A stretch of 64,000 bases of DNA from Candidatus Babeliales bacterium (GTDB taxonomy: Bacteria > Babelota > Babeliae > Babelales > JANWKD01), in contig CAVRJO010000001.1 of the NCBI GenBank assembly GCA_963722255.1, positions 81,007 to 145,006 on the forward strand, read 5' to 3'. The notes beneath the pieces were generated by a model. That model worked only from the letters and a program-made list of their open reading frames with translations. It searched no databases and was not told where the DNA came from. Both the position numbers and the translations under genes were made by a program. The first letter of the stretch is position 1. Each line of letters opens with the position of its first letter. Below are positions 12,208 through 54,843 of this stretch, piece by piece.

Positions 12208-12534
12208 CTATCGATTGAGCGAGCGTTCTAAAAAATCACGCTCTGCCGTTATTTGACCAATTACTCGATAAAGCCTATCAATTTCCTCTTGTTGGTCCTT
12301 TTCTTGTTTCCCCTCAAAAAGGTTGCTCATATTTTCTTCAGCATGTCTTTTCCAGATAGAGATTTGTGCAGGAGCAATGCTATGTTCCTGACTTAGTTCG
12401 TTTAAAGTTTTTTGTTCTCTAATAGCATCTATAGCTACTTTTGCTTTGAATGAACTACTATGTTTTTTATATCTTCTTGCCATAAAAATTCCCCGATAAT
12501 AATGTTCACTTTCATGTTCATTAAAAACTAACAC
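12208..12534 (-). CDS. IS3-family transposase OrfA (HTH DNA-binding)
   Basis: MARRYKKHSSSFKAKVAIDAIRE... is typical of IS3/IS911 OrfA; ends just after slippery heptamer T TTT TTA (12229-12235), with orfB open in the -1 frame. Confidence 0.8.
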   Translation of the reverse strand: MLVFNEHESEHYYRGIFMARRYKKHSSSFKAKVAIDAIREQKTLNELSQEHSIAPAQISIWKRHAEENMSNLFEGKQEKDQQEEIDRLYRVIGQITAERDFLERSLNR

Positions 12535-23628: not shown

Positions 23629-25695
23629 ATGAAGTTCTCTCTTAAAACCTCTTTAAAAGCAATAGTATTGCTTGCTTGCTCTATCACTATGTTTTGTGGA
23701 TTTATTATATCTGAATGTACAAATAATATATATGCTACTAAACAAAAACCTTTTTCAATGGGTCATGGGAATCAAAAATATAGCGTAATTCCTTGTATGC
23801 TAGATCTTAAAAATATAATACAAGCTCTTATTGAACATCATATTCAAAATAAAATAGAAGATGAAATTCCAGAAGAGTTTTTTATTTGCTACAAAACATT
23901 ACTCGAAGGCAAAAATATATTTTTGACCGAAGATTTATTAAAAGCATTAACCTATATAGCTTTGAAACTTGATGAACTCACTCAGTCCAAAGCTCCTCGA
24001 GAAGATGCACCAAATGGGAATCCAATTGTTGGCCCATTAATTGCTTGTGATATTAGTTCGAAAATTATTTTAGTAAATCAAATAATTAACCTTATTAAAA
24101 ATTGCTGTAATCAATTAGAAGAAGATTTTAATCTTACTTTTAGTTTAGTTACTGATTTAAATACTACGATCACAACGTGCATAACTGTCATTACTGCTTT
24201 AGACTTTTCAGCTACTGCGACAGTATTAGCTGATATACAAAATACTCTAACAGCATGTTGCCAAGAGATAGCAAATGAATTTCAACAAACATGGACCATT
24301 CTAGCAGCTGGATTCAATGAAACTTCAACGGTACTCGCTGATATAAAAAATACCATGACCTCATGTTGTGCGAATACTCAACTAAATTTTCAAGGAACAT
24401 TTACTCTCATTACATCTATACAAAATAGCAAGCGGTGTCCTCCTATTTCACTCTGCTCGCCAATTCAAATTATGGCACCAACAACTATTTCTACACCAGG
24501 TTTTTACTGTTTAAATAACGATATTAGTGGTCAAATTGTTATCAATGCAAATGATGTTACACTCGATTTAAATAGTCATACGATTACCGGAGGAGGTATT
24601 GGATCAGGAAGCGGCATTATTGTCAACTCAGGATTTAATAGGCTTATTAAGAATGGAAATATCACTGCATTTGATAATGGTATTCAATGTATAGGAAACA
24701 CTGATACCGTTATAGAAAATCTTATAATCACAAACTGTTTTATTGAAGGTGTTACCATAAATACAGGAACTGCCATTTTTCTAGATTCATTATCAATACA
24801 TAATATATCAGGAATTGGTGTTCATTTTGTTAATGGAAATGATGCAAGTAGTATAAAAAATAGTACCGTAACACAATCTGAACAAGGATTTGTTTTTGAT
24901 TTTATTTATAACAGCTTAATTCAAAATTGCAATGTTCTTGATTGTAGTTCAAATTTAAACATTACTGCAGGAAACGTTGGCGGTTTTATTATCAATAATG
25001 GAAGCTTTATTCAAATTAATAACAGCTCTGTTAAAAACTATGTAGGGCTTCAACGCATAGCAGGGTTTGCATTAGTTAATGCGGTAGAAAACGTTATTTT
25101 TAGTAACTGTACTGCTCAAAATATTGTTGCAACATTGCCTGGACAGGTCGTTTCAATCGCCTTTGGATATATAGCAGGTTTATTCACATCGCATTTAGAA
25201 TTCACTGATTGCTCAGCTTTATCTGTTACTGCTGATCAAATTGCTGTTTGCTTTGAAATAGAAGGCCCCGGAGTAACGCTTGATAAATGTAGCGCCCAAA
25301 TTTGCACATCAAATAGTATTCTTGCCGATGGTTTTCACTCCATAAGCAATAATGTATCTATAAGTTATTGCCAAGCTTATAAATGCAAACAAAACGGCTT
25401 TAATCTAGATTCATTTAACAATAGTACGGTACTTCAATATTGCCAAAGTGCATACAATAATAATGGATTTATCATTCAAACACCTTCCAGTCTGCTTGAT
25501 AATTGCGTTGCATTTAAAAATAATATTGGATTTAATCTTAATATTGCAGGAATCTCCCTTGTACATTGCTTTGCAGCACAAAATACTACTAATTACACAT
25601 TTTTTGCTAATAATGTACAAAATGCAAATACCCAAGTTAATAATGCCGCCCCTCTCCTTACCGGTCCCTTTGCAGGAGCAAACCTATTTATGTAA
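23629..25695 (+). CDS. secreted Cys-doublet-repeat / right-handed beta-helix-like protein, paralog 1 of a tandem array
   Basis: AGGA SD; signal peptide; 4 spaced CC doublets in repeats (...DIKNTMTSCC...); then ISTPGFYCL...VINANDVTLDLNSHTITGGGIGSGSGIIVNSGFNRLIKNG and ~20-25-aa periodic N/G/I/V-rich repeats; conserved C-terminal tail NANTQVNNAAPLLTGPFAGANLFM. Confidence 0.7.
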   Translation: MKFSLKTSLKAIVLLACSITMFCGFIISECTNNIYATKQKPFSMGHGNQKYSVIPCMLDLKNIIQALIEHHIQNKIEDEIPEEFFICYKTLLEGKNIFLTEDLLKALTYIALKLDELTQSKAPREDAPNGNPIVGPLIACDISSKIILVNQIINLIKNCCNQLEEDFNLTFSLVTDLNTTITTCITVITALDFSATATVLADIQNTLTACCQEIANEFQQTWTILAAGFNETSTVLADIKNTMTSCCANTQLNFQGTFTLITSIQNSKRCPPISLCSPIQIMAPTTISTPGFYCLNNDISGQIVINANDVTLDLNSHTITGGGIGSGSGIIVNSGFNRLIKNGNITAFDNGIQCIGNTDTVIENLIITNCFIEGVTINTGTAIFLDSLSIHNISGIGVHFVNGNDASSIKNSTVTQSEQGFVFDFIYNSLIQNCNVLDCSSNLNITAGNVGGFIINNGSFIQINNSSVKNYVGLQRIAGFALVNAVENVIFSNCTAQNIVATLPGQVVSIAFGYIAGLFTSHLEFTDCSALSVTADQIAVCFEIEGPGVTLDKCSAQICTSNSILADGFHSISNNVSISYCQAYKCKQNGFNLDSFNNSTVLQYCQSAYNNNGFIIQTPSSLLDNCVAFKNNIGFNLNIAGISLVHCFAAQNTTNYTFFANNVQNANTQVNNAAPLLTGPFAGANLFM

Positions 25696-25729
25696 GGTAA
25701 TAGAAAAATATACTATATAAGGAATAAGA

Positions 25730-27556
25730 ATGAAGCATACTATCTATAAAAAAATAAAAACAGTTTTGGGCTTTGTAATAATTGTAGTACCACTCATATG
25801 TTATTCACAAACAAACAGCGATTATTTGCATAATCGTGCTCCTCGAATAGATGCGATAGAATTAGCCGATGGAGCTGTTGTAGGACCATTACTTAATTGT
25901 AATTCAGTAAAAGTTTTAGGATTACTTAACATTTTAAAAAAAGACATCAACTCTTGCTGTATTGAGTTGGAAAATGATTTTATAGGAACATTTACGATTT
26001 TATCAGATATAAAAAATACATTTACAGCGTGCTGCACAATAATCCAAAGTGATATTAATGGGACTTTTACAACGTTATCTGATGTTTTAACTACGTTAAC
26101 GAATTGTTGCAATGAAATAACCAATGAATTTAATCAAACATGGACCATTTTAGCAGCTGGATTTTCAAATACATTCACTGCATATTTTGATTTTAAATCA
26201 ACCTTAACAACATGTTGCGATCAAATCGAAACAAATTTTACAAACATATTCATTGCATTAGAAAATCTTTCTGCTATCTGTCAAGGTTCTGTGTGCAACG
26301 CAATTACCATAACTGCACCAGGAACCATATCCATTCCTGGTTCATATTGTCTTGCTAACGATATTATTGGATCAATAATAATTAATGCAAATAATGTTAC
26401 CTTTGACTTAAATAATCATACAATTTCAGGTTCAGGTGCAGGAAGTGGTGCAGGGATTATACTTAATGCTGGCTCCAATCGCGTTGTAAAAAATGGACGT
26501 ATAACCAATATTGATTCTGGGATTGTATGCAATAACAATAACCAAACAATCTTAGAGGGTATTGTTGTTGAAACAGCATTTGTTGAAGGCATAACCATTA
26601 ATAATGGTAATACTATACTGTTAGATTCTTTAATTACCACAAGCGTCCTTGGTATCGGCGTTCACTTTACCGGTAACAACAACGGTACTCTCATCAATAA
26701 TACGACCGTTACTCTCTCCCAACAAGGTTTTGTTTTTGATACTATAACCAATAGTTTAATTAGGAATTGTAACGTTCTTGATTGTAGCACCACCGTAGTT
26801 ACTCCATTAGGAACCACCGTAGGCGGTTTTACTATTATTAATGGTAGCTTTATACAGTTCGAAAACTGCTCTGTCAAAAACTACATTGGAGTTGACTCAG
26901 TGGCAGCATTCTCACTTAATAATAATGTTAATAACGTAATTTTTAAAGCTTGTACTGTGCAAAATATAATTGCAACTATTTCATCTTCGTTTGGATCCAT
27001 AGCTGTTGGTTTTAATTGTGGCGTTACCAATACTATTCAACTTCTTAATTGTTCTGTTTTAGATGCAGCAGCAGATCTATTTGCAGGTGGTTTTTTATTC
27101 ACAGGATCGAACATACAAGCAGAAAATTGTATTGCGCGCCATTTTACTACTTTTACTATTCCTCCTAGCTCTGGCAATAGTATCGGATTTCAAGTTACCA
27201 ATAATAACGTTATACTAAAAAATTGCGAAGCCTATGAATGCGCCCAAACAGGATTTTTCATATCACCCACAGGAACCCTTATTAATGTTTCACTCATTAA
27301 CTGTCAAGCTGCGTATAATAATTCTGGTTTTTCAACGCAATCAGCAGGTACCATTTTTGAACAATGTGTAGCATTTAAAAATGGCACCGGATTTTTTTCG
27401 TCAGTGGTGGGGGTTTCACCTTTCAGATGCTTTTCTACACAAAACACAACTAATTATGGTGGATCCATTGTCAATGTACAAAATGCCAATACCCAAGTAA
27501 ATAATTCAGCGCTTGGACTCACAGGTCCATTTGCTGGTGGTAATTTATTTATTTAA
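25730..27556 (+). CDS. secreted Cys-doublet-repeat / beta-helix-like protein, paralog 2
   Basis: Same architecture as paralog 1; 34-bp spacer; tail NANTQVNNSALGLTGPFAGGNLFI. Confidence 0.7.
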   Translation: MKHTIYKKIKTVLGFVIIVVPLICYSQTNSDYLHNRAPRIDAIELADGAVVGPLLNCNSVKVLGLLNILKKDINSCCIELENDFIGTFTILSDIKNTFTACCTIIQSDINGTFTTLSDVLTTLTNCCNEITNEFNQTWTILAAGFSNTFTAYFDFKSTLTTCCDQIETNFTNIFIALENLSAICQGSVCNAITITAPGTISIPGSYCLANDIIGSIIINANNVTFDLNNHTISGSGAGSGAGIILNAGSNRVVKNGRITNIDSGIVCNNNNQTILEGIVVETAFVEGITINNGNTILLDSLITTSVLGIGVHFTGNNNGTLINNTTVTLSQQGFVFDTITNSLIRNCNVLDCSTTVVTPLGTTVGGFTIINGSFIQFENCSVKNYIGVDSVAAFSLNNNVNNVIFKACTVQNIIATISSSFGSIAVGFNCGVTNTIQLLNCSVLDAAADLFAGGFLFTGSNIQAENCIARHFTTFTIPPSSGNSIGFQVTNNNVILKNCEAYECAQTGFFISPTGTLINVSLINCQAAYNNSGFSTQSAGTIFEQCVAFKNGTGFFSSVVGVSPFRCFSTQNTTNYGGSIVNVQNANTQVNNSALGLTGPFAGGNLFI

Positions 27557-27583
27557 TTTTAAATACAAAAAAAAGGAATATAA

Positions 27584-29317
27584 ATGAAGCTTATTTCTAG
27601 CAATAAAAATAGATTACTTTGTATTGGTTTGGTTTTGCTTGTATGGTCTCAAGACCTTTTAGGAGACGAAATAAATAGGAAGAATCCAATTATTGTTTGC
27701 GATTTTAATCCTACCATTGAAACGATACTTGAGATAACTACGCTTTTTAATAGTTGCTGTAATCAGTTACAACAAGATTTTAGCGAAACATTTACAACTC
27801 TTAATGACATTAAAAATACCCTAACAACCTGTTGCACTTTAGCTCAATCAGAATTCGATGCAACATTTACTGCCCTTGCAGATTTAAAAAATACTCTTTC
27901 TGCATGCTGCTTTGAAACCACCTTAGAATTTCAGGGAACCTGGACAATATTGGCAGCAGCATTCAATGGTACATTTACCGCAACTGCTGATATAAAAAAT
28001 ACCCTTACGAGTTGTTGTAACATTATTCAGAATGATTTTCAAGCTACCCTTAGTGTTATTAGTTCACTCAGTTCTATCTGCTTGTTTGCTTGTTCAGCTA
28101 TACCTATAACTGCTCCAACAACAATTTCAACTCCAGGATATTATTGTCTTGCAGCCGATGGTGCAGGTCCCATTATTATTAATGCAAACAATGTTACGTT
28201 AGATCTCAATAATCATACGTTAGCAGGAAGTGGCATAGGATCGGGTTCTGGTATTATTGTAAACAGCGGCAATAATAGAATTATTAAAAATGGAAAAATA
28301 AGAAATTTTGATACGGCAATTCTTTGCAATAGCAATATTAATACTCTTATAAACACACTAGAAATTGATACCTGTTTTGTACAAGCAATAGAAATAATAA
28401 GTTCTACTGCAACATATTTAAATAGATTATTAATAAGCAATATAACAGGTATTGGCGTTCAATTTTCTGGATCCAATAATCATGCAAATATACTAACAAA
28501 GGTCACTGTTATTGAAGCACAACAAGGTTTTGTTTTAACAAGTTTTTTTACTGGTTTATTACAAGAATGTGAAGTAATAGATTGTATATCTTCGATCATT
28601 CCGGGTACAACTTTGAATGGTTTTGTTATTAATGAAGGTAATTCTAATCTATTTGATACTTGTTCAGTAAAAAATTTTGCTTCTTCTCGTTCTCGAGGGT
28701 TTGCTTTCAATAATGCATCTACTATAATTCTACGGAATTGCTCAGTGCAAAATCTTGTTACTTCACCCATCTTATCAAATGAAGTGATCGGGTTTGATTG
28801 CACAGCTTCTTCAACCGATATTCAATTGTGGAGCTGTTCTTTACACGATGCTCAATCTTCCTCAGTTTGTACAGGATATGAGTTTGCAGGTAATACCATT
28901 ACCGCAAAAAACTGTTTAGCACAAGCTTGCACATCACTCGGGGTAAATGCTGGAACTGGTTTTGATCTTACTGGAATCAATATTTCTCTCATTAATTGTC
29001 AAGCATTGAGCAATACTCAAAATGGTTTTAATGCTGTAACGAACAATCCAGGTCTTATGCAATACTGCCAAGCTGGTTTTAATGCCAATAATGGATTTAT
29101 CATTGGTGCAAATACCACTACCGGAAATTGTTCATCATTCAATAACAATATAGGCTTTAATGCTCCTTCTAATGCAATTATTTATAACTGTTTTGCATCA
29201 AAAAATAGTACCAACTATGTTGCAACAGTTCCTAATACGGAAAATGCTAATACTCAAGTTAATAAAGCTGCTCCAGGGCTCACAGGTCCATTTGCTGGAG
29301 GCAATGTATTTATGTAA
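27584..29317 (+). CDS. secreted Cys-doublet-repeat / beta-helix-like protein, paralog 3
   Basis: Same architecture; 27-bp spacer; tail NANTQVNKAAPGLTGPFAGGNVFM. Confidence 0.7.
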   Translation: MKLISSNKNRLLCIGLVLLVWSQDLLGDEINRKNPIIVCDFNPTIETILEITTLFNSCCNQLQQDFSETFTTLNDIKNTLTTCCTLAQSEFDATFTALADLKNTLSACCFETTLEFQGTWTILAAAFNGTFTATADIKNTLTSCCNIIQNDFQATLSVISSLSSICLFACSAIPITAPTTISTPGYYCLAADGAGPIIINANNVTLDLNNHTLAGSGIGSGSGIIVNSGNNRIIKNGKIRNFDTAILCNSNINTLINTLEIDTCFVQAIEIISSTATYLNRLLISNITGIGVQFSGSNNHANILTKVTVIEAQQGFVLTSFFTGLLQECEVIDCISSIIPGTTLNGFVINEGNSNLFDTCSVKNFASSRSRGFAFNNASTIILRNCSVQNLVTSPILSNEVIGFDCTASSTDIQLWSCSLHDAQSSSVCTGYEFAGNTITAKNCLAQACTSLGVNAGTGFDLTGINISLINCQALSNTQNGFNAVTNNPGLMQYCQAGFNANNGFIIGANTTTGNCSSFNNNIGFNAPSNAIIYNCFASKNSTNYVATVPNTENANTQVNKAAPGLTGPFAGGNVFM

Positions 29318-29353
29318 TTCTTTTGATAAAAAATGTACTTAAGGAGAACCGTA

Positions 29354-38957: not shown

Positions 38958-40706
38958 ATGAACGCAGGAGTAAAGAAGTTTATAGTAGGTCTGTTCTGTA
39001 TTGCATTTACGTCTATCCATGCCATTGAATCTTATAACGAAAAAAAAACAGTTTTTGATGAAAATTTTAGTAAAACTTTAGAATCAGAAATTCGTTCCAT
39101 CATCTCACGTGACTGTTCCTTCTCTATCGGACAAATTTCACAATTCAATATTCCTTTTGTTATTAATAATAGAATCAGCCCGAATAACAGTTTCAATAAT
39201 ATTACACCAACAACAAATGCATTCAGTAATAACACGTTAATCGGACTTTCTGCGACCAATAATACCACGAACTCATTTAATACTGACAATACAATTAATA
39301 CTAATAACATTACTAACGGCTTTAGTTCCTTTAATAGCAATGCAAATCCAATAAACTGTAATGTTACGGTTAATAATAGCAATAATCCATCCGGTCTTTA
39401 TTGTCTGGCTCCAAACTTTGCTTCACAAGTTACCAATAATCCTCAACTCGTTGGGAAAATTGCTGTTCCTTGTAATGTTGGAATTACTATTAGTGCAAGC
39501 AATGTTATTATAGATTTTAATGATACCGTGCTTATGGGTAGCGGAGGGTCAACAGGAATCTTAATTAATGGTGGCGTTTCAAATATCATTATACGAAACG
39601 GTACCATAAGCAATATGACAAATGCAGGGATTACTATAAACAATGGTAGTAGTGCCATGACAGGTTCGATTCTTATTGAAAATATGAAATTCTTCAACAA
39701 CGGAACAGCTGTCAATGTTATTGGTGGATTCAATGTTATACTACAAAACTCTCGAGCCTATTTTTCAAATTCTAATGGATTTTCATTTTCCCAAGTAACC
39801 GACTGCTTTTTAAATAATTGCATAAGCAATAGCAATAACAACCATGGCTTTAACATTGCAAATTCAAATTCTATTGTTATATCAAATTGCCAATCTGATG
39901 AAAATACCCAAAATGGTTTTAATATCACTGGGCTTACGGGAAGTGTCATCGAACAATGCGTGGCTAATAATAATCAAAATGGTTTTGTAATTGCACCAGG
40001 GAGTGCTCTATCACAAAACGTATTAATAAATCATTGTTTTACCGCGCAAAATACGATTATAGGATTTTCAATAACAGGAAATGCCATAAATGGCGATGAA
40101 TGTGTTTCTTATAATAACACGACGGGATTTCAATGTATTGGCAACGCTATTTCATTAAGTGATTCTGTTGCAAAAAATAACTCCGGTAATGGATTTCAAG
40201 TTACCGGTAATTTTGCTCAACTAACCAATACAGAATCAATGAGCAACACGGCTCAAGGATTTCAAATTAATGGAATTACTAATTCACTGTTACATGCTCT
40301 AGCAAAAAATAATGGCACCAATGGATTTCAAATTACCGGTACCGGGTCAGAGATACAATATTGCACTGCTTCAAGCAACGGTTCAAATGGAATCATTATC
40401 AATGGCAACAATCATGCCATCTTAAATTGCATAGCACAACAACATAATATAGGTAATGGAACAACGACAGGAAATGGAATTTTATTAGCAGCGCTTAATG
40501 GATTTGGCCCAATTTCAACGACCTGCCAAGTTAGAAATAATACAACAATTGGTAATGTAACCGGTATCAACAATCAAGGAACCAATAATAGAATCTATTC
40601 AAATTTTTCAAACAATAATACCACTAATTATATCAATGTTCCCAATGTAGCAACATCCCCACTGATAACGGATCCAATTAACTTCACAGCAAATATCTCA
40701 GAATAG
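38958..40706 (+). CDS. secreted beta-helix-like protein, divergent fifth paralog lacking the CC-repeat module
   Basis: Signal peptide; Asn/Thr-rich low-complexity linker; GLYCLAP...ISASNVIIDFNDTVLMGSGGSTGILINGGVSNIIIRNGTI parallels the ...YCL...INANNVTLDLNNHT..GSG.GSG.GII.N.G.NR.IKNG.I block of the array genes; many NGF[NQ]I(T) repeats; C-terminus ...NNTTNYINVPNV... is related but lacks the LTGPFAG tail. Confidence 0.6.
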   Translation: MNAGVKKFIVGLFCIAFTSIHAIESYNEKKTVFDENFSKTLESEIRSIISRDCSFSIGQISQFNIPFVINNRISPNNSFNNITPTTNAFSNNTLIGLSATNNTTNSFNTDNTINTNNITNGFSSFNSNANPINCNVTVNNSNNPSGLYCLAPNFASQVTNNPQLVGKIAVPCNVGITISASNVIIDFNDTVLMGSGGSTGILINGGVSNIIIRNGTISNMTNAGITINNGSSAMTGSILIENMKFFNNGTAVNVIGGFNVILQNSRAYFSNSNGFSFSQVTDCFLNNCISNSNNNHGFNIANSNSIVISNCQSDENTQNGFNITGLTGSVIEQCVANNNQNGFVIAPGSALSQNVLINHCFTAQNTIIGFSITGNAINGDECVSYNNTTGFQCIGNAISLSDSVAKNNSGNGFQVTGNFAQLTNTESMSNTAQGFQINGITNSLLHALAKNNGTNGFQITGTGSEIQYCTASSNGSNGIIINGNNHAILNCIAQQHNIGNGTTTGNGILLAALNGFGPISTTCQVRNNTTIGNVTGINNQGTNNRIYSNFSNNNTTNYINVPNVATSPLITDPINFTANISE

Positions 40707-40779: not shown

Positions 40780-41931
40780 TTAATCCCAAGGATTCCACTC
40801 TTCTTCCTCTTCACCCTCTTCTTCTTCAGGATTCATTGATTTATAACGCTCCCCAAGTACTTTTTTCAATCGCTCTTGCAAAGAACCTTCTCCCTCTCCC
40901 GTTTCAGGCTTTTTTTCTTCCATTTCCGGTTTTTTAAGTTTTCCCATCTTTTCTTTTAATTGTTCTTCTAAACTCTTTTCTGGCGCTTGCGGAGCTCCAG
41001 GTTCTTTTTTTTCAGGTGAAGGTGGCGGAGGAGGTATTGTTCCTTCATGTTCTTCTTTTTGAGGCTTCTCAGGCTCTACTCCAGGTAAAGGAGGCAACGG
41101 TCTTTCTTCTTCTGATCCTTCAGGCAATTCTCGTTTAGGCACCGGCGGTGGTTCATTTCCTTCATATCCTTCTTGCCATGATCTTTTAACATTTCTATAG
41201 GCATTATTTAGTTGGTTTACATAACTTTTTCGCGTCCCAAGAATATTCTTTTCTTTCATGATCTCTTTCATGAGAGATGCATGCCGAGCCATTAAATCTT
41301 TTTCACGCTGCAATTCTTCAGGTGTATAAACTAATTCTTCTTCTTTTTTAGGCAAGATAGGCAATTCTCTGAGAGATTCCAATATTTTTCTATATATTTG
41401 TAGTGCATAAGGTGATTGATCAATTGCTTGCAATAATGCACTGATCTTATCTTGAATTTTTTTATTTTTTATTTGTGTTTCAAGCAGTGGCAGCTTTTGG
41501 GAAAAACGTTTTAATAGTTCTTCTAAATGAGAGTTAACAAATGATCGTAAAATTTCAGGATTACTAGATTGATCAACTTCCTGCAATAGATCTGAAAATT
41601 CTGCAAGAATGCTCTTTTGCGCTTGCTTTTCTACAGGAGTTAAATCTTGTAGTGGTAATTCTGACTTGCTTATAGATGGGACAAGGTTTGCCTCATCAAA
41701 GAGCGCGTAAATAACAGCCAGAGGTTTTCCCTGAGCACCAATTTTAGTGAAAAATATTTGTAACTTTTCTTTTAACGGCTCAAGCGTCTCATCTCCTGCC
41801 AAAACCAAAACAAGTTCTTGCAATGTTGCCCGCAAGCTTTTTAACTGATCAACAATAGTATATGAGGCATACACAGAGGCAGAACACAGTAACAAAACAA
41901 ACAAGAGACTCATAGTTTTACATTTGTTCAT
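40780..41931 (-). CDS. secreted coiled-coil protein with proline-rich SH3-ligand-like motifs and acidic tail (candidate effector)
   Basis: Signal peptide MSLLFVLLLCSASVYAS; central helical region; C-terminal NEPPPVPKRELPEGSEEERPLPPLPGVEPEKP...GTIPPPPPSPEKKEPGAPQAPEK...EEEEGEEEEEWNPWD. Confidence 0.5.
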   Translation of the reverse strand: MNKCKTMSLLFVLLLCSASVYASYTIVDQLKSLRATLQELVLVLAGDETLEPLKEKLQIFFTKIGAQGKPLAVIYALFDEANLVPSISKSELPLQDLTPVEKQAQKSILAEFSDLLQEVDQSSNPEILRSFVNSHLEELLKRFSQKLPLLETQIKNKKIQDKISALLQAIDQSPYALQIYRKILESLRELPILPKKEEELVYTPEELQREKDLMARHASLMKEIMKEKNILGTRKSYVNQLNNAYRNVKRSWQEGYEGNEPPPVPKRELPEGSEEERPLPPLPGVEPEKPQKEEHEGTIPPPPPSPEKKEPGAPQAPEKSLEEQLKEKMGKLKKPEMEEKKPETGEGEGSLQERLKKVLGERYKSMNPEEEEGEEEEEWNPWD

Positions 41932-42139: not shown

Positions 42140-45100
42140 ATGCTGCAAAAACATTTTACCCATCTGCATTTACATACTGAATTTTCCCTTCTTGATGGGG
42201 CAATACATATTGATAAGCTCATAGATTTTGGTAAAAAAAATAATTTCAAAGCCCTTGCTATCACTGATCATGGAAATATTTTTGGTGCCGTAAAGTTTTT
42301 CCAAAAATGTAAGAAAGCTGGTATTAAACCAGTTCTTGGGATGGAAGCTTATTTTACCGAAGATGTAGCAATCAAATCCGCCGACCGCAAATATTACCAT
42401 CTTATTTTGCTGGTACAAAACGAAACAGGTTATAAAAATCTTTGTAAACTCATTTCTTTTGCCTATCAGAGCGGATTTTATTTTAAACCTCGTATTGACT
42501 ACGCAATACTTAAAAAATATTCTGAAGGACTTATTGCAACATCGGCGTGCCTGGGCGGACACATCCCAACACTGTTGATGAATAATCAACTCGATGAAGC
42601 ACGAGAAAGGCTTCTTTGGTTTTTAGAAGTTTTTGGCCCTGATAGATTTTTTTTAGAGGTGCAACCGGAAGATCAACACGAGCAAGCAGAACTTAATACT
42701 AAGCTCTATGAGCTTAGTGCACACTATGGAGTAAAACTTGTCGCAACAGGAGATTGCCATTACATTCATGCTACTGATCGCGAAGCACATGAAGTCATGC
42801 TTGCCATACAAACGCAGCACAAAATCACTGATCCTGATAGGTTTTCTTTTGGACAGGCTCGAGTACATATGCGCACTCAAGATGAGATGCTTAATCTCTT
42901 CTCAGAACACCCTGACGCAGTATGGAATAGCGGCGCAATAGCGGACTCATGCAACTTTGATTTTACTACAGGCAAACTTTATTTCCCTGAGTTTCAAATT
43001 CCGGACCAACATACACCTGAATCTTTCTTTACCGAACTTTGCCATCAAGGGTTGCATAATCTTATACAAAACGACCTTATTGATAAACAAAAAGAGCACG
43101 AATACTGGAATCGTCTCAATTTTGAACTTGATCTCATTATTAAAATGGGATTCGTTGGTTATTTTCTTGTCGTAAGCGATTTTATTCAATGGTCAAAAAG
43201 AAATGGCATTCCTGTTGGCCCCGGACGTGGTTCTGCAGCAGGATCATTAGTTTCATGGTCGTTACAAATTACTAATATTGATCCTTTAAAATATAACCTA
43301 CTTTTTGAACGCTTTTTAAATCCAGAACGAATCAGCATGCCCGATATTGATATAGATTTTTGTATCGAAGGTAGAGATGCTGTTATTAATTACGTTCGAG
43401 AAAAATATGGCCATGATAAAGTTGGTCAAATAATCACCTTTGGTACCATGATGGCAAAAGGTGTTATCAAAGATGTTGCACGTGTTTTGGGAATGCCATT
43501 TGAAGATTCAAATGCAATATCAGCACTTATACCCGAGCAACTAAAAATAACGCTTAAAGAAGCAATCGAACAAGAACCAAAACTCAAAGAGCTTATCGAT
43601 AATAATTCCCAAGTTGCAAAAGTCTTTGAAATTGCATTCACCTTAGAAGGCATTACTCGTCATGCCTCCAAACATGCCGCAGGTATTGTTATTTCTCCCG
43701 AGCCTATTGATGAAGTTCTTCCTGTGTATGTTCCACCAAAAAGCAGCGAACTCGTTACACAATATGCAATGACAGAATTAGAGGCATTGGGTTTTTTAAA
43801 AATCGATTTGCTTGGGTTAAAAAACCTTACACTTATTGAACGAACTCTTCAACTTATTAAAAAAAATCATGACATTGTGATCAATTTGGATAAGTTACCC
43901 CTTGATGATGCTAATACCTTTAAACTCATTTGCCAGGGAAAAACATCGGGGGTATTCCAGCTTGAATCAAATGGTCTTAAAGAAGTTTTACAAAAGCTTC
44001 AACCGGAGAAATTTGAAGATATTATTGCTGTAAATGCTTTATATCGTCCCGGACCTCTTGGCTCCGGAATGGTAGATGACTTTATCGAGCGCAAACAGGG
44101 TCGTCAAAAAATAATCTATATCTTTCCGGAACTTAAACCTATTCTTGAAGAAACCTACGGTGTTATTGTCTATCAAGAACAGGTTATAAAAATCGCATCT
44201 GCAATAGGAGGCTATAGTTTAGGCGAAGCAGATATTTTACGTAAGGCTATGGGGAAGAAAAAAGCTGACGTAATGGCAGAACAAAAGGAGATTTTTTTAA
44301 AGAAGTCTTTAGCACTTAATTTTGATGCAAAAAAATCTGCTGAAATTTTTGACTTAATGGCCTATTTTGCCGGTTATGGTTTTAATAAATCACATTCTGC
44401 TGCTTATGCATTAATTGCGTATCAAACTGCTTATTTAAAAGCTAATTTCCTTCCTGAATTTATGGCTTGTTTGATTTCGCTTGAATCGGCCAATGCCGAA
44501 AATATGGTTTTTTATTTACAGGAAGCAAAAGATATGGGGTTACCAATTTTGCCGCCCAATATTAACAGCTCTGAAATCGATTTCAGCATTATTAATAACG
44601 CACTTCTTTTTGGTTTACGCGGTATAAAAAATGTTGGCATGGCATCTCTTGATAATATTATTAATGAACGTAAAAAAGGACCCTTCACTGATCTTTTTAA
44701 TTTTTGTAAACGAATAGATTTACGAACTTCAAATAAACGTGTAATAGAAAACTTAATTTGTGCAGGTGCATTTGATTCTTTACCGGGCAATCGAGCTCAA
44801 AAATATGAAGAGCTTCCTAAAATTATGGAACAAGCTTCTGCCAAAAAAAAGAGTGAAGAAACCGGACAATTAGGGCTATTTGATATTCAGAGCAGTCCTA
44901 GTCCTGATCTTTCAGTACACCAAGAGCCTTCCTATTCATTCAGTTCTCGCTCAGAATGGGATAATAAAACAAAGCTTGAAAAAGAAGAAGAGGTCATTGG
45001 TTTTTATTTAAGCGCACATCCACTCGATGCCTATAAACACTATTTACAATGGTTTAAAATTCAACCATTTCAACATATATTGAACGCGTCCTCTTCTCTA

Positions 45101-45601
45101 AATTCGATGCAAGAACCGGTTATTATTGCATGCGGATTACTTAAAGCAACCAAAGTTATTATGACAAAAAAAGGCGATCGAATGGCTTTTATAACTCTAG
45201 AAGATACCGTCTCAACCGCTGAAATAATTCTTTTTCCAAAAACATATGCAGTAACAGAGAAATGGCTCAATGAGCATCATGTCTTTATTGTTAAAGGAAA
45301 TTTAGATATAACTTCAACACAGAAATGCAAAATCAAAGCTCAATCTATGATTCCACTAGATTTGCTCTTTGAAGAATGGCCTCATATAGAAACTATTATT
45401 TTAGAGTTACCACCGGAATTTAACGAAACAATGCTTCATAATCTTAATCAAAAGCTTGTTGCAGGCAAAACGGCTCTTAATTTTATATTTTATGAAAATG
45501 GAAAAAAATTATATTTAAAAAGCCAAAAGAAGATCAACTTAAGCTCTAATTTTATTAAAGAAATTAATGAACAAAACATTCAAATACATATTACGCTCTA
45601 A
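42140..45601 (+). CDS. dnaE: DNA polymerase III alpha subunit
   Basis: 1153 aa; N-terminal PHP domain (HLHLHTEFSLLDGA), polymerase core (...GRGSAAGSLVSWSLQITNIDP...PDIDIDF...), OB-fold region. Confidence 0.95.
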   Translation: MLQKHFTHLHLHTEFSLLDGAIHIDKLIDFGKKNNFKALAITDHGNIFGAVKFFQKCKKAGIKPVLGMEAYFTEDVAIKSADRKYYHLILLVQNETGYKNLCKLISFAYQSGFYFKPRIDYAILKKYSEGLIATSACLGGHIPTLLMNNQLDEARERLLWFLEVFGPDRFFLEVQPEDQHEQAELNTKLYELSAHYGVKLVATGDCHYIHATDREAHEVMLAIQTQHKITDPDRFSFGQARVHMRTQDEMLNLFSEHPDAVWNSGAIADSCNFDFTTGKLYFPEFQIPDQHTPESFFTELCHQGLHNLIQNDLIDKQKEHEYWNRLNFELDLIIKMGFVGYFLVVSDFIQWSKRNGIPVGPGRGSAAGSLVSWSLQITNIDPLKYNLLFERFLNPERISMPDIDIDFCIEGRDAVINYVREKYGHDKVGQIITFGTMMAKGVIKDVARVLGMPFEDSNAISALIPEQLKITLKEAIEQEPKLKELIDNNSQVAKVFEIAFTLEGITRHASKHAAGIVISPEPIDEVLPVYVPPKSSELVTQYAMTELEALGFLKIDLLGLKNLTLIERTLQLIKKNHDIVINLDKLPLDDANTFKLICQGKTSGVFQLESNGLKEVLQKLQPEKFEDIIAVNALYRPGPLGSGMVDDFIERKQGRQKIIYIFPELKPILEETYGVIVYQEQVIKIASAIGGYSLGEADILRKAMGKKKADVMAEQKEIFLKKSLALNFDAKKSAEIFDLMAYFAGYGFNKSHSAAYALIAYQTAYLKANFLPEFMACLISLESANAENMVFYLQEAKDMGLPILPPNINSSEIDFSIINNALLFGLRGIKNVGMASLDNIINERKKGPFTDLFNFCKRIDLRTSNKRVIENLICAGAFDSLPGNRAQKYEELPKIMEQASAKKKSEETGQLGLFDIQSSPSPDLSVHQEPSYSFSSRSEWDNKTKLEKEEEVIGFYLSAHPLDAYKHYLQWFKIQPFQHILNASSSLNSMQEPVIIACGLLKATKVIMTKKGDRMAFITLEDTVSTAEIILFPKTYAVTEKWLNEHHVFIVKGNLDITSTQKCKIKAQSMIPLDLLFEEWPHIETIILELPPEFNETMLHNLNQKLVAGKTALNFIFYENGKKLYLKSQKKINLSSNFIKEINEQNIQIHITL

Positions 45602-45607
45602 GCGAGC

Positions 45608-46264
45608 TTACAATTCTTGCATATGCATAGTTGCATCAAAATAATAATCTTCATGTAATGCTTCAATTGTAGACAAAAATGTTTGTAAAATAGAAGCATT
45701 TTTACAAAGCAGCAGAAGATTAATTGATTTCTTTAAAAAAGCACGAACCACATCAGCATCATTTTTATTTTTGATCAATGCTACGGTAATTGCATTATAG
45801 AGACTCGCTACATCTGTATTGGTTATTTTTTTTTCCCAATCTTCCATAAATTCTTCTAATCTATCAATTTGGTTAGTATAAACAAAAAGAGAGCATAATT
45901 TGTTCAAATGTACGCATAATCTTGAGTTAATACCCAATTGTTCATATAATAAAATAGTTTGCATAAGATCATCCTGAGATGTCTCATCGAGCAAAAGAAT
46001 ATGCTCATATACAGCTGCAGCTTCTATTAATTTTTTATTTTGAATATACAGTAGTGCGGCTCCCCGGTATCGCAGACAAGCGGCAGGTATATCATTAAAA
46101 GAAAGTAGAATATCACCCTCTAATTGAGCGGCAAGGGCATAATCATCAAATGAATGGATAAGTAATTTATATAAGCAAAGCGCCCGTTCTCGTTCACCAC
46201 GAGAAACAAATTCTGCTAACTTAAACCATGCAACATTATATTTATCCGACGGGAGCTGCCTCAT
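45608..46264 (-). CDS. hypothetical helical (TPR-like) protein
   Basis: 218-aa all-helical ORF, convergent with dnaE; no recognisable motif. Confidence 0.3.
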   Translation of the reverse strand: MRQLPSDKYNVAWFKLAEFVSRGERERALCLYKLLIHSFDDYALAAQLEGDILLSFNDIPAACLRYRGAALLYIQNKKLIEAAAVYEHILLLDETSQDDLMQTILLYEQLGINSRLCVHLNKLCSLFVYTNQIDRLEEFMEDWEKKITNTDVASLYNAITVALIKNKNDADVVRAFLKKSINLLLLCKNASILQTFLSTIEALHEDYYFDATMHMQEL

Positions 46265-46443
46265 TATTTATATCCCTTTGCTTCTCAACCAATTTACTCT
46301 CATAATCTTTACCCTATCACGGGGAAAATTTGAGAACAAGCTTTTGTGCTAAATCAAATATTTTTAATTTCTGCAGGGATATATTTTCCATCAATATCTG
46401 GAAGAGGATTTGCTTTATGTGACTCCAAAATAATTTGAGCGGC

Positions 46444-46948
46444 AATTCCATCCCATGATTTTTCGACTAAAAACATCAATTAAGCAAACCAAATATACAA
46501 AACCACCCCGTATTTTTATATAGGTTATATCTACTTGCCAAACCTGATTTGGTCGATTAATAAGCAACCCACGCAATAAATAAGGAAATACTTTGTGCCC
46601 CTGATTTCGTATGGTTGTTTTTTTGCGAGGGTAAATGGCCTGGATGCCCGCTATCTTAAGCAACATAAAGACTTTTTTATGATTAACCAAAAAACCATTT
46701 TCTCTTAAAGCTACTGTCATGCGCCGATAGCCATAGGAAGGCGTTTCTTGATAAATTTCACGTAGCTCATTCATAATAATTGCATCATTATTTTTTTGAG
46801 GTTTAGGCTTGTAATACATCGATCCTCTCGATACATCTAAAAGTTCACATTTTCTTTTAAAGTCTATTGCTTCATTTACACACTCAACCATTTCCTTACG
46901 CTGCTTTAAATCTATCGATTGAGCGAGCGTTCTAAAAAATCACGCTCT
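46444..46948 (-). mobile_element. IS3-family element internal fragment (copy 2, ~505 bp), inserted in an IS4-like remnant
   Basis: Near-identical to 11740..12240 of copy 1; ORF 46415..46891 reads straight through the site frameshifted in copy 1 (..GGFVYLVCLIDVFSRKIMGW); similarity to copy 1 ends abruptly on both sides. Confidence 0.75.
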
Positions 46949-47455
46949 CCAATAATAAGCAACACTTAAAACAAGAATAAGACGTTCTATTCGTTCTGCA
47001 TGGCGTAACTGAGTAGTAGTGATATCAAAGCCTCTTGATTTAAAGTCTGAGAACATAGGCTCAATAGACCATCGCATGCCATAATCAAGAACTTTATATT
47101 CGGTAGGAACACAATCCATAGCAATGATCCAAGGTTCATCTTTGCCTTCATCTTGTAGTGCACCAATGTTAGTTGTAACGCCAGAATTATTCAACTGAAC
47201 ATTGCACAACGATGTTTGTTTTAATCTGATAAGCTCGCCAGAACTCAATTCCCCACCATGATGAAAAAGAATAAGATTACCTTTCAAGCGAATGCGGTAT
47301 CGCCATTTGAAACTTTGACATAATTGGATAAGCGCAGGATTCCCATAGAATCTATCCGCCATTAAAATAATTTTTGCATAGCTTGGTATGTTAGCAAACA
47401 CCGCCTCAAGCAGTTGTTTTTGAATGGTAAAGCCAATTTCTCCTTGAGTTTAGTC
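46940..47455 (-). pseudogene. IS4-like DDE transposase C-terminal fragment
   Basis: C-terminal Y-x2-R-x3-E-x6-K signature YGMRWSIEPMFSDFK; an in-frame stop ~47455 truncates the N-terminus, and the IS3 fragment abuts the C-terminus. Confidence 0.55.
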
Positions 47456-51171: not shown

Positions 51172-52392
51172 TTAACAATTACTTTGCTTCAAAAGGCGAA
51201 TAATAGCTTTATAATCTTTCTGTTGTCCAAGATGAAAGAATACTTTATAAAATGTCGTTTCTTTATTTTCGGTTTCAGCAAGCATCATAATTGCAATTTC
51301 TTCCGCTGTCCCCCCGCCATAGCCTCTTATCGTTCGATCGGCCCCATGCTTTAATAACGTTGAAACAATCGTTAAATTACCATACTTTGCAGCATACATA
51401 AGGGCGGTCATTCCTTGATGGTCTCGCACATTAATTAGAGCTTTGCATGCTAGTAGTTCATTTGAGGCAAAATAGTTATTATAGATCGCACTAAATATTA
51501 ATGGTGTCGCACCTGAATTATCTACGTTATTAACATCCGCACCATTTGCAAGCAATAAAGCTGTTGTTTTATGCGTATGATTAAATATCGATAATGCTAG
51601 CGACGTTACTCCTAAACTATTTCTATTATTAACATACGCCCCCCTTTGAATTAGCTCTTTAACTATTTCAAAAGGAAGTTGTTTATACATAAGGGGTGTT
51701 TTCCCCTGATTATCAATTTCATTAACATCAATCTTTCGGCTCAAAAAAACCTTAAGCACATTTATATTATTATTTTTTGCCAACGCATAACTGAATAATG
51801 GCGTCTCATATCTTACCATAACTTTTTGATGTACATTTGCGCCATGATCAAGTAAAAAATCAACCATTTCTGGATATCCGCTTTGTACAGCAATTACAAT
51901 AGGTGTAAAACCTTTCTTGTTCTTTTGATCAACCAGCGCACCTGCAGAAAGCAGTAACTGTGCATATACTAAAGATCTGCTTTTAATAGCACATCCCAAA
52001 GGAACATCATCACGCACATTACTATTATTAAGATCTATTCCTGTTGTTAAACAATCACGGACATCATCGTAACTATATTTACCCCGATTTTTCATTGCTA
52101 AGCATAAAGCCTCTACAAAATTAAAGTTTACATCAATCAATAACTGTACAAAACTACAAAGCTCATCCGGACATTGTTTATGATCATCTAACTTAATTTT
52201 TTTTTGCTTTATTTCTTGGGCAACAACAATTGCCGCTCTCATTCTCAATGATGGCATTGGTTTAAAAAGCATCTTAGATTCTCTATCGCCTTCCTCCATG
52301 CCATAGACATTATTTTTTCCAACTGATAGAACGAAACTTATAATAACAAAATACAATGAGCAGCTCTTACGTCGTTTATTTATTATTTTCAT
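51172..52392 (-). CDS. ankyrin-repeat protein
   Basis: At least 8 ANK repeats (e.g. GFTPIVIAVQSGYPEMVDFLLDHGANVHQK; GATPLIFSAIYNNYFASNELLACKALINVRD). Confidence 0.8.
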   Translation of the reverse strand: MKIINKRRKSCSLYFVIISFVLSVGKNNVYGMEEGDRESKMLFKPMPSLRMRAAIVVAQEIKQKKIKLDDHKQCPDELCSFVQLLIDVNFNFVEALCLAMKNRGKYSYDDVRDCLTTGIDLNNSNVRDDVPLGCAIKSRSLVYAQLLLSAGALVDQKNKKGFTPIVIAVQSGYPEMVDFLLDHGANVHQKVMVRYETPLFSYALAKNNNINVLKVFLSRKIDVNEIDNQGKTPLMYKQLPFEIVKELIQRGAYVNNRNSLGVTSLALSIFNHTHKTTALLLANGADVNNVDNSGATPLIFSAIYNNYFASNELLACKALINVRDHQGMTALMYAAKYGNLTIVSTLLKHGADRTIRGYGGGTAEEIAIMMLAETENKETTFYKVFFHLGQQKDYKAIIRLLKQSNC

Positions 52393-52445: not shown

Positions 52446-54843
52446 TTATGAATATCTCTTCAAAAACGGAATAACCGAATCAGGATTTAATGATAACGAT
52501 GTTATACCTAAATCAACTAAGAACTGGGCAAATTCAGGATAATCTGATGGCGCTTGACCACAAATACCTATTGGTTTTTTATGACGCAATGCACCTTCAA
52601 TAACCATTGCACACATTTTTTTCACTGCCTGATCTCGTTCGTCAAAAAGAGGTGCAAGAAGCGCCGAATCTCTATCAACGGCAAGAGTAGTTTGTGTCAA
52701 ATCATTTGATCCAATCGAAAATCCATCAAAAAGCTTACAAAATTCATCAATGAGGAGAACATTTGATGGTATTTCAACCATCATATAAATTTTCAAACCA
52801 TTATGACCTTGAACAAGCCCATACTTCTTCATAACCGTTATCACTCGCCAAGCTTCATCAACGGTTCTAACGAAAGGAATCATAACAATAATATTGGTAA
52901 GGCCCATAGTATCTCGAGCTTTTTTTAATGCAGCACATTCAAGTGCAAAAGCAGGCTCATACAATGGATTATAATAACGAGATGCGCCGCGTAATCCTAA
53001 CATCGGGTTACTTTCTACGGGTTCAAAAAACGAACCACCAAGTAAATCTCGATATTCATTCGTTTTAAAATCAGAAAAACGTACTATAACAGGATGAGGA
53101 TAAAATGCCGCGGCAATAGATCCGACACCTTGGGCTAAAGAATCAATAAAAAAATCTTCACGTGTAGCGTAAGCGCTTGTTAAAAGATCCAGCTCATGAA
53201 TAATTTTTACGTCCTTAATAACAGCGTTTTGAGTAAATGCCATTGGATGAGCTTTTATTGTGTGCGCTATTATAAATTCTACGCGCGCCAGACCAACTCC
53301 AGATACAAAAGGCAATTGACACACCACAAAAGCATTATTTGGATCAGCAATATTAACCAGTATTTCTTTTGGTGGCTTTACAAGTTTTGTTGTATCAATT
53401 TCTGAAATGGTAAAAGGTATCTGACCATTATAAACAAATCCTTGTGCGCCCTGGCTACAATCTAAGGTAATTATGTGCCCATCTTTTATTAAGGTAAGCG
53501 AATTGGCTGCGCCTACAACAGCAGGAATACCCAATTCTCTGACTTACAATTGCTGCATGGCATGTTCTCCCACCTTCTTCGGTTACAATACCGGCCGCTT
53601 TTTGCATCAAAGGAACCCAATCGGGATCTGTCATTTGAGTAACTAAAATGTCTCCCTCATTGAAAATGGCTGCATCTTTTGCGCTTTTAATGATACGAGC
53701 TTTTCCTGATACTATTTTTGTACCAACACTTTGCCCTTCAACAAGAATCTGTTGCGCAGCATCTTTTTTATGAGCCTCTTGCAAAGAATAAAGTTGCATA
53801 AAAGCACTCTGCTTCTTTAAGGAATGTACCGTTTCCGGACGCGCTTGAACAATATAGAGAGAACCATCTAATCCATCTTTTGCCCATTCTATATCCATAG
53901 GCGACCAAAAACCATTGAGTTGCGTATAATAGTCCTCAATGAGCACAATATTTTTTGACAGCTCTTGTATTTCGGAGTCAGTTAAACAAAATCTTTGAGC
54001 ATCAGATTGTTCAACAGGCACCCATTCAACTTTTTTTTGCTCAGTTGCATAGATTAGTTTTTTTCTCTTAGAACCTATCACTTTTTTTATAATGGGATTA
54101 AATCCCTCTTTAAGCGTTGTTTTAAAAACACGATACTCATCAGGATTAACAATGCCTTGAACCACAGCTTCGCCAAGTCCATACGATGCATCAATCATAA
54201 TTAAATCTTTAAAACCTGTTTCAGTATCCAATGAAAATGCAACGCCGGAAACAGCTAAATCTGAACGCACCATTTTTTGTACAACAATTGAAAGCGCTAT
54301 ATCAAGATGATCAAAGCCTTTTGTTGAACGATACATAATTGCTCTATCGGTAAATAATGAGGCAAAACATTTTTTACATGCCTCTATCAACTGTTTTTGA
54401 CCTTGAATATGCAAAAAACTTTCTTGCTGTCCTGCAAATGATGCTCCAGGAAGATCTTCCGCGGTTGCTGAAGAACGAACTGCAACATCAACTTCATCAG
54501 TATGATATTCTTTTGAAAGCTCTTGATATGATTGAGCTATTTCATCAAATAAATCTGAAGGCATCTCTGCTTTACAAATGAGTTCTCGAACTTCTTTCGC
54601 TTTTTTAGTAAGACTGGATAAATCATTAAGATCTATCGAGTTTACTATTTTTTTTATGAGCGGTGCCAGACTATTATAATCTAAATAATGCCGGTATGCT
54701 CGAGCAGTTATTGCAAAACCGTCAGGAATTTTAACTCCTTTCTGAGTCAAATATTGAATCATTTGACCAAGAGATGCAGTTTTACCACCAACTAATGGAC
54801 TATCATGTATACCCACTTGATGTAGCGATTTAATATATTCCAT
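52446..54843 (-). pseudogene. ppsA: phosphoenolpyruvate synthase (pyruvate, water dikinase) disrupted by a +1 frameshift in the phosphohistidine motif
   Basis: N-terminal piece 53455..54843 (MEYIKSLHQVGIHDSPLVGGKTASLG...GGRTCHAAIVSQ) and C-terminal piece 52446..53534 (MGIPAVVGAAN...) overlap in different frames. Re-phasing by one A within CAGAGA (~53537-53542) restores GGRTCHAAIVSRELGIPAVVG. Confidence 0.8.

Follow-up and report, generated by a model that had tools for sequence, protein, structure and literature searches.

Which host machinery, if any, would be addressed by a putatively exported bacterial protein whose C-terminal tail is built of eukaryote-type motifs? The question is raised by a gene on the reverse strand of a 64,000-nucleotide stretch of DNA from a Candidatus Babeliales bacterium (assembly GCA_963722255.1, contig CAVRJO010000001.1, positions 81,007 to 145,006; the whole stretch is hereafter referred to as the window). 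Its product, the target protein, had been singled out from the sequence as a candidate host-targeting effector that mimics ligands of eukaryotic adaptor proteins (the original prediction). Dependentiae (TM6) are a phylum of obligate intracellular protist parasites (PMC6561590, PMC4776705). They are widespread, and their manipulation of the host is almost uncharacterised. The two accounts of the phylum consulted here describe ankyrin proteins and hydrolases and no cytoskeletal factor (PMC6561590, PMC4776705), and our full-text literature search found no paper linking Dependentiae to WH2 or actin nucleation.

We tentatively propose, at somewhat less than even confidence, that the target is a rapidly evolving effector that leaves the bacterium, and that its last 125 residues, which are disordered, make up a WASP-like cassette for the host Arp2/3 complex. 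The cassette would consist of a proline-rich part (P), a WH2-like element (V) that is not present throughout the family, a C-helix-like segment (C) and an acidic end (A), i.e., P-(V)-C-A. Judged by its sequence, the target is thus a candidate for a known strategy, WASP mimicry by pathogens, in a phylum that lacks a known cytoskeletal effector.

Motif order and conservation in the C-terminal tail

The coding sequence is complete, its translation is exactly the one quoted earlier, and the motifs described in it were recovered at their positions. The following features of the gene and of the tail were defined:

40780..41931, reverse strand: complete coding sequence, 383 aa and a stop codon (open reading frame (ORF) translation; synteny with dnaE and the beta-helix gene)
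41131..41151, reverse strand: PPPVPKR, aa 261-267, class II SH3-type motif PxxPxR (motif pattern)
41083..41103, reverse strand: RPLPPLP, aa 277-283, class I SH3-type motif RxxPxxP (motif pattern and orthologs)
41014..41037, reverse strand: IPPPPPSP, aa 299-306, poly-proline run of the profilin/FH1 type (motif pattern and orthologs)
40927..40974, reverse strand: WH2-like segment SLEEQLKEKMGKLKKP, aa 320-335, a short helix plus LKK, non-canonical candidate contact for an actin monomer (AlphaFold2 helix 321-330)
40834..40881, reverse strand: C-helix-like basic helix LQERLKKVLGERYKSM, aa 351-366 (N-WASP/WASP register 6/6; AlphaFold2 helix)
40783..40827, reverse strand: acidic run and Trp at the C-terminus, EEEEGEEEEEWNPWD, aa 369-383, A-region-like (shared by 5/5 family members)

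Read from the N- to the C-terminus, the tail carries the SH3-type motifs, the profilin-type poly-proline run, the LKK helix SLEEQLKEKMGKLKK, about 15 linker residues, the basic helix and, after two further residues, the acidic/Trp end. In WASP-family proteins, the corresponding module comprises a proline-rich stretch, WH2, an amphipathic C helix with a conserved Arg and an acidic stretch with a conserved Trp at the C-terminus (PMC2151093). The AlphaFold2 model of the target (mean predicted local distance difference test score (pLDDT) of 51, i.e., low confidence; alignment depth of 4) contains helices at aa 25-256 followed by a disordered tail, in which just two short helices, 321-330 and 351-366, are predicted, at the V-like and C-like segments. 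The end of the protein had been described as an acidic tail; this description has to be extended, as it follows the P-(V)-C-A layout together with the conserved basic helix and the C-terminal Trp. Therefore, the SH3- and profilin-type motifs become accessory parts of a larger module. Of the mimicry effector that was originally proposed, we retain an exported-looking protein with conserved eukaryote-type motifs encoded by a fast-diverging gene, but not the notion that the SH3/profilin motifs are its core.

Homologs were sought by a word-indexed search of 5.8 billion proteins and by an exhaustive HMMER profile search of 1.84 billion representatives. Together they retrieved two fragments of the target itself, three orthologs (P0002, P0003 at L084:1196-2260 and P0004 at L086:267-1058) and one further protein, P0006, and nothing else; in the exhaustive search, six proteins were found, all of them either of the target family or P0006. 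The family alignments, run against 185,579 species genomes, IMG/VR and JGI metagenome contigs, revealed no further relative. The overall identity among the four orthologs, the target included, is 39-49%. Between genomes in which DnaE, RuvB, YebC and YicC are 78-90% identical, identity falls to 39-40% for the target protein; no gene of the block evolves faster, and even the adjacent beta-helix protein (55-68% identity to its orthologs) is exceeded.

In spite of this divergence, the proline-rich motifs are kept, so that the check for conservation among related symbionts, suggested with the original prediction, came out in its favour. The RPLPPLP heptapeptide is identical in three of the four orthologs (target, P0002 and P0004) and reads RKLPSLP in P0003. 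The position equivalent to PPPVPKR is occupied by APPVPER in P0004 and by RPLPPLP followed by KLPPQLP in P0002. RxxPxxP or PxxPxR is present in all four orthologs, and the proline-rich stretch lies directly N-terminal to the VCA-like segment (V, C and A in succession). The class I motif RPLPPLP, the class II core PPVPKR (aa 262-267) and the IPPPPPSP run were thus all found as predicted, at the level of patterns; the two SH3-ligand cores lie in the predicted disordered region and are conserved in orthologs. The pattern I-P-[PA]-P-P-P is invariant in 5/5 family members, P0006 included. Overall, 14/46 columns in the motif islands are invariant versus 3/60 in the linkers (Fisher p=4.7e-4; the islands were defined post hoc).

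The six positions of the C-helix register were set a priori from PDB-verified N-WASP and WASP sequences. All six are matched in the target: L351, L355, V358, L359, R362 and M366 correspond to N-WASP I463, L467, V470, M471, R474 and I478. The match covers the Arg and three of the four Arp-facing hydrophobic residues named by cryo-EM (PMC7274804). The form of the helix, L...L..ΦΦ..R...Φ, is kept in the family, with L355 and R362 invariant in the four orthologs and 4-5 of the six register positions matched in the other members. In local shuffles of 33 residues, a 6/6 match arose in 3e-5 of trials, and among 1,407 background ORFs (taken from the window and 86 loci) six contained such a match within their last 60 residues. 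When the family tail was aligned by hhalign with a canonical VCA alignment, a single alignment was returned, which placed the C helix in the N-WASP register (P=0.0013).

An acidic stretch with a conserved Trp at the C-terminus, which is how the A region is defined (PMC2151093, PMC7274804), was found in 5/5 members, whose ends read EWNPWD (target), EWEYNPWE, SWDPWD, NWESDPWDR and NEWSD. A literal EWE occurs in P0002 and a literal DPW in P0003 and P0004; the target has EWN and NPW. Among the 1,407 background ORFs, family copies alone combined an acidic run with a Trp within the last six residues.

The V-like element is the least constant part. The LKK-helix segment is present in the target, P0002 (LEERLKEGAENLKKIEQ) and P0006 (LEEQLKEKQSNLRKF), that is, in 3/5 members. 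The WH2-like segment of about 20 residues is precisely missing from P0003 and P0004; in P0004, some 100 aa of the N-terminal helical region are gone as well. Long and short architectures thus occur side by side in the family.

P0006 (347 aa; L082:2367-3410, forward strand, and also L083:2345-3388) has an unrelated N-terminus and no signal peptide. It shares the tail alone: IPPPPP, TLEEQLKEKQSNLRKF, a helix and then EEEEEEEEENEWSD, with no RxxPxxP. By composition-adjusted BLASTP, the target and P0006 are 43% identical over 49 residues spanning the V-like and C-like core (pairwise E=4e-6). The cassette is thus found on different N-termini, with or without an export signal, and therefore behaves as an autonomous interaction module, as VCA does. 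The P0006 contig (7.5 kb, 27% GC) carries ORFans, and an adjacent ORF, L082:756-1967, matches the PHROG terminase large subunit (phrog_2, E=2.3e-6); since this ORF is terminase-like, the contig is probably viral, from either a phage or a virus of eukaryotes. Nothing more about its origin emerged from the phage tblastn search, the IMG/VR scan, PDB, NCBIfam or the search of 5.8 billion proteins, and P0006 is a singleton. The terminase-like ORF starts straight at a Walker-B-like LIDEADF, and the gene may be split or truncated.

The export signal, at the other end of the protein, is the following feature:

41866..41931, reverse strand: predicted Sec-type signal peptide, aa 1-22, MNKCKTMSLLFVLLLCSASVYA followed by SY (n- and h-region features, small residues at -3 and -1)

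As had been anticipated, the N-terminus of the target looks like a signal peptide: there are two Lys in the n-region, a hydrophobic core with a Kyte-Doolittle value of 2.96 at aa 7-16, no acidic residue among the first 22 and a putative cleavage site VYA/SY. Signal-peptide features are present in all four orthologs, and the N-termini of DnaE, YebC and YicC of the window are not signal-peptide-like. A lipoprotein was considered and rejected, as a lipobox is missing and the Cys varies among the orthologs. Signal peptides were reported for 44% of coding sequences (CDS) and 78% of ankyrin-repeat proteins in C. destructans, and the latter are regarded as secreted effectors (PMC6561590); components of the type II secretion system (T2SS) are core genes of Dependentiae (PMC4776705). 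Within the window, signal-peptide-like N-termini were found on 5/5 beta-helix proteins and on 2/3 ankyrin proteins, the latter consistent with the secreted-ankyrin pattern published for Dependentiae. Taken together, the C. destructans ankyrins, the core T2SS and the N-termini of the window ankyrin and beta-helix proteins make a Sec signal peptide a lineage-appropriate effector signal. The target presumably passes beyond the periplasm.

Calibration of the comparison with WASP-family proteins

The motif arrangement was confronted with homology-based tests. The human N-WASP and WAVE1 VCA sequences used were verified against PDB chains 2vcp_D, 6uhc_H and 4n78_D. Several results weigh against the WASP-like reading. 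Searches of Pfam, NCBIfam, PDB and the 1.84 billion representatives gave no homology to WASP-family proteins or to any known family, and neither the whole target protein nor its tail fragments had a Pfam, NCBIfam or PHROGs match. Searches of PDB by phmmer and with the family profile gave chance matches only (RPL27, KRE29, PKN). Our own V, C and CA hidden Markov models (HMMs), built from PDB-verified mammalian sequences and run on the 1,407 ORFs, produced no significant family match, and the hhalign probability for the VCA link is just 18%. Of the background ORFs, 9% match the C register at five or more of its six positions, and the Arg is missing from the C-like helix of P0006. With 4+1 sequences, of the same genus by DnaE, the family is too small to carry arguments from deep conservation. 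The hypothesis was formed after the sequence had been read, which makes the statistics post hoc. Finally, a Sec-exported target would still have to cross the outer membrane and any vacuolar membrane.

The V element fares worst. Pfam WH2 finds nothing in the target, even when isolated fragments are searched at E<=10. A WASP/N-WASP WH2 HMM recovers WAVE1 (rank 2, E=1e-4), while the target family ranks 17-440. The target has LKKP instead of LKK[VTI], and the V-like segment is deleted in two orthologs. Because of the failed WH2 HMM, the LKKP and this deletion, the V element is not a canonical WH2, and it can at most be regarded as a WH2-like helix comparable to the one in Legionella RavH, which was experimentally shown to bind actin (PMC13481308). 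The top match of the mammalian WH2 mini-HMM is an ORF of a Selenomonas metagenome-assembled genome (MAG) locus that had been retrieved with DnaE as query (L028, forward strand, frame 1, starting near aa offset 3573; E=0.004, 13 bits), probably a chance match.

How much the negative tests mean depends on their power. In a leave-one-out control with a WASP/N-WASP-only model, genuine WAVE1 ranked 458 (C) and 29 (CA), and P0006 and the target ranked at or above this real family member. The C and CA HMM tests are therefore powerless. The WH2 test, in which WAVE1 was recovered, has demonstrated power, and the target family failed it; the WH2 claim was downgraded for this reason. Against PDB, WAVE1 versus N-WASP reaches just E=6.7e-4. 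The hydrophobic moment was uninformative, as the N-WASP C-helix itself is indistinguishable from its own shuffles.

A recent transfer from a eukaryotic WASP gene was also considered and has no support, the exhaustive profile search having returned only the six proteins described above. Since homology and a canonical WH2 were looked for and not found, we do not assign the target to the WASP or RickA families and claim only that it would work like one of their members.

Proposed mechanism, known systems and rival explanations

In the preferred reading, the Sec signal peptide would carry the target across the inner membrane, as suggested by the sequence, and release to the host side would follow, possibly by the T2SS of the phylum or by vesicles, as the literature suggests. 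Judging by motif register and position, the acidic/Trp end and the basic helix would dock on Arp2/3 in the manner of WASP-family A and C regions. Profilin-actin would be recruited by the invariant IPPPPP; the weakest step is that an actin monomer may be bound by the LKK-containing helix. Through the RxxPxxP/PxxPxR motifs, the target would be linked to adaptors with SH3 domains. Branched actin would then be assembled locally and be used for entry, for remodelling the vacuole or for movement. We infer every binding step, access to the host cytosol and the direction of the effect (activation versus inhibition).

To the VCA/WCA modules of the WASP family (WASP, N-WASP, WAVE/SCAR and WASH), the target tail is similar in its linear order at the C-terminus (PMC2151093) and in the C-helix register at six positions. 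Spacing is also similar: the acidic run starts 2-3 residues after the end of C, and LKK and C lie about 15 residues apart. In contrast to these modules, the target has no detectable homology to them, its WH2-like element is non-canonical and dispensable in the family, and a second Trp is present in a [ND]PW[DE] end. Its N-terminal part consists of a Sec signal peptide and an unrelated domain, and the regulatory domains WH1, GBD, SHD and WAHD are all missing.

By analogy, the closest functional counterpart of the target is RickA, a protein of an obligate intracellular bacterium in which an N-terminal region and a central proline-rich part are followed by a C-terminal WH2-C-A that activates host Arp2/3 (PMC2440523). 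RickA, which belongs to another phylum, has no signal sequence (PMC2440523), whereas the target family has one, and the proline part of the target consists of SH3/profilin-type motifs rather than RickA repeats. RickA is not a detectable relative in the exhaustive profile search. The IPPPPP[SL]P run is of the type repeated in formin FH1 and in the proline-rich regions of WASP and VASP, which recruit profilin-actin; the target differs in having a single copy and no FH2. Other pathogen mimics of nucleation-promoting factors, namely Listeria ActA, Burkholderia BimA and baculovirus p78/83, unite elements that bind actin, acidic/Trp elements that bind Arp2/3, and stretches rich in proline. ActA has a signal peptide for Sec export, its elements are N-terminal and in another order, and it has a C-terminal transmembrane anchor; BimA is an autotransporter.

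Extending the reading, one may suppose that Dependentiae independently assembled a Sec-exported, WASP-like Arp2/3 activator out of short linear motifs, and that the P-V-C-A cassette is portable between bacteria and a virus-like element that probably share protist hosts; we consider this broader proposal rather unlikely. If true, it would point to the exchange of motif cassettes among intracellular parasites. Should the target, as in the preferred reading, be secreted and directed at Arp2/3, it would be the first actin-manipulating, indeed cytoskeletal, effector known from Dependentiae, and entry, the handling of the vacuole or movement could be approached through it by inexpensive tests. It would then be an independently evolved addition to the small set of pathogen WASP mimics (ActA, RickA, BimA and p78/83), delivered by a plain Sec signal peptide. 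Such cassettes are invisible to domain/HMM annotation, given that even WAVE1 and N-WASP barely detect each other, and need motif order and conservation to be recognized.

Should the target bind Arp2/3, it might instead inhibit or sequester the complex and, lacking a functional WH2, block host nucleation-promoting factors, e.g., blunting phagosome or actin-dependent defences, as regulators with an A motif only do. A relevant precedent is the A domain of Legionella SidG, an effector of an amoeba-adapted bacterium that has a short Asp/Glu-rich motif with an essential Trp that binds Arp2/3 (PMC12904589). Its 13-residue acidic/Trp motif is necessary and sufficient for Arp2/3 binding, such motifs are found in activators and inhibitors alike, and SidG itself disrupts the cytoskeleton (PMC12904589). 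The SidG motif differs from the target tail in being internal, within a large Cys-His-Asp enzyme gated by Rac1 and delivered by a type IV secretion system, and in having no poly-Pro, V-like or C-like context. SidG thus supports the inference of Arp2/3 binding by the target and leaves the direction of the effect open. The non-canonical WH2-like piece and its loss from two orthologs would suit an inhibitor; the invariant IPPPPP and the C-helix-like segment, which is conserved, are traits found in activators (PMC2151093), and the target, P0002 and P0006 retain the LKK helix. We regard inhibition as improbable.

It is about equally improbable that the protein is a scaffold of SH3, EVH1 and profilin ligands that hijacks host adaptors, as originally proposed, with the acidic end serving as a solubility or chaperone-type tail that plays no role with Arp2/3. 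The conservation of RPLPPLP, PxxPxR and IPPPPP is what a scaffold would predict, and the lack of statistical homology to VCA modules fits it as well. Such a scaffold leaves the L...L..ΦΦ..R...Φ helix, located two residues before the acidic run, and the invariant terminal Trp unexplained, and P0006 has the V-like, C-like and acidic/Trp parts yet no RxxPxxP.

One could also suppose that the target resides in the bacterial envelope or periplasm, makes no contact with the host and carries a charged, proline-rich spacer comparable to that of TonB or ZipA, the motif matches being by-products of low complexity. Spacers rich in EP/KP occur in envelope proteins, and the composition of the target tail (28% Glu, 19% Pro and 13% Lys) is compatible with such a spacer. 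A signal peptide alone proves periplasmic export only, and a related genome encodes one in about 44% of its CDS (PMC6561590). The target lacks a C-terminal globular domain of the TonB/ZipA kind, however, and conservation in the tail is motif-specific rather than compositional. The restriction of this fast-evolving gene to a narrow lineage is atypical of core envelope machinery, and P0006 carries the cassette without a signal peptide. A spacer is accordingly given a low likelihood.

Least probable by far is that the terminal Trp motifs serve kinesin-1 light chain or endocytic adaptors: W-acidic motifs recruit the former and DPW/NPW motifs bind AP-2 or EH-domain proteins, and W[DE] is found twice within the acidic stretch of three orthologs, with the literal DPW in P0003 and P0004. 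On the other hand, DPW motifs that function are usually arrayed, EWN and NPW are what the target has, P0006 shows a single EWSD, and the C-like helix and the poly-Pro run would be left unexplained.

The N-terminal region and the surroundings of the gene

Two features were defined between the signal peptide and the tail:

41164..41859, reverse strand: helical N-terminal region, aa 25-256 (AlphaFold2 helices, pLDDT 36-84; no Pfam or NCBIfam match)
41338..41397, reverse strand: best-conserved N-terminal block, aa 179-198 (IYRKILESLRELPILPKKEE), with the PxxPx[KR]-like LPILPxR (ortholog alignment)

A helical region following the signal peptide had been predicted, and the AlphaFold2 helices at aa 25-256 agree with it, at low confidence. 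The block at aa 179-198, with the consensus IYRKILESLRELPILPxR[DE]E, is nearly invariant across the four orthologs: I179, R181, I183, L184, S186, R188, L190, P191, L193, P194 and E198 do not vary.

As described previously, the target gene lies between the gene of the fifth beta-helix paralog (38958-40706, Pfam Beta_helix) and dnaE (42140-45601). The arrangement dnaE / target / beta-helix / YicC / YebC / RuvB is common to the P0002 and P0003 loci, and P0004 is syntenic as well. In more distant Babeliales, the target gene is absent at the same neighbourhood, although the neighbourhood itself is kept. The DnaE of the window is 60-70% identical to those of four MAGs (one labelled Candidatus Babeliales) and 39-46% identical to the others among the 80 loci kept, which places the window in a bacterium of the Dependentiae (TM6). 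A promoter/terminator scan did no better than on shuffled sequence.

Right-handed beta-helix paralogs number five in the window, four of them in 23629-31363 and the fifth at 38958-40706 on the forward strand. The fifth protein contains a long Asn-rich low-complexity region and, at the 55-68% identity given above, is itself fast-evolving next to its housekeeping neighbours (78-90%). There are three ankyrin-repeat proteins, at 10243-11283, 12528-14657 and 51172-52392 (reverse strand).

Just downstream of dnaE, a 218-aa ORF (45608-46264) with sub-threshold Pfam matches only (FlbT, E=0.005; TPR_2, E=0.37) lies beside degraded-looking insertion sequence elements, represented by two short transposase fragments (HTH_21/rve and DDE_Tnp_1) at 46415-47401 on the reverse strand. 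Pyruvate phosphate dikinase is encoded in two overlapping ORFs at 52446-54843 on the reverse strand, PPDK_N and the mobile domain at 53455-54843 and PEP-utilizers_C at 52446-53534; a frameshift, a faulty assembly or decay into a pseudogene could account for the split. A group II intron reverse transcriptase/maturase (RVT_1 and GIIM) is encoded at 4388-5698 on the reverse strand, where the local GC content is 41% compared with about 34% for the window.

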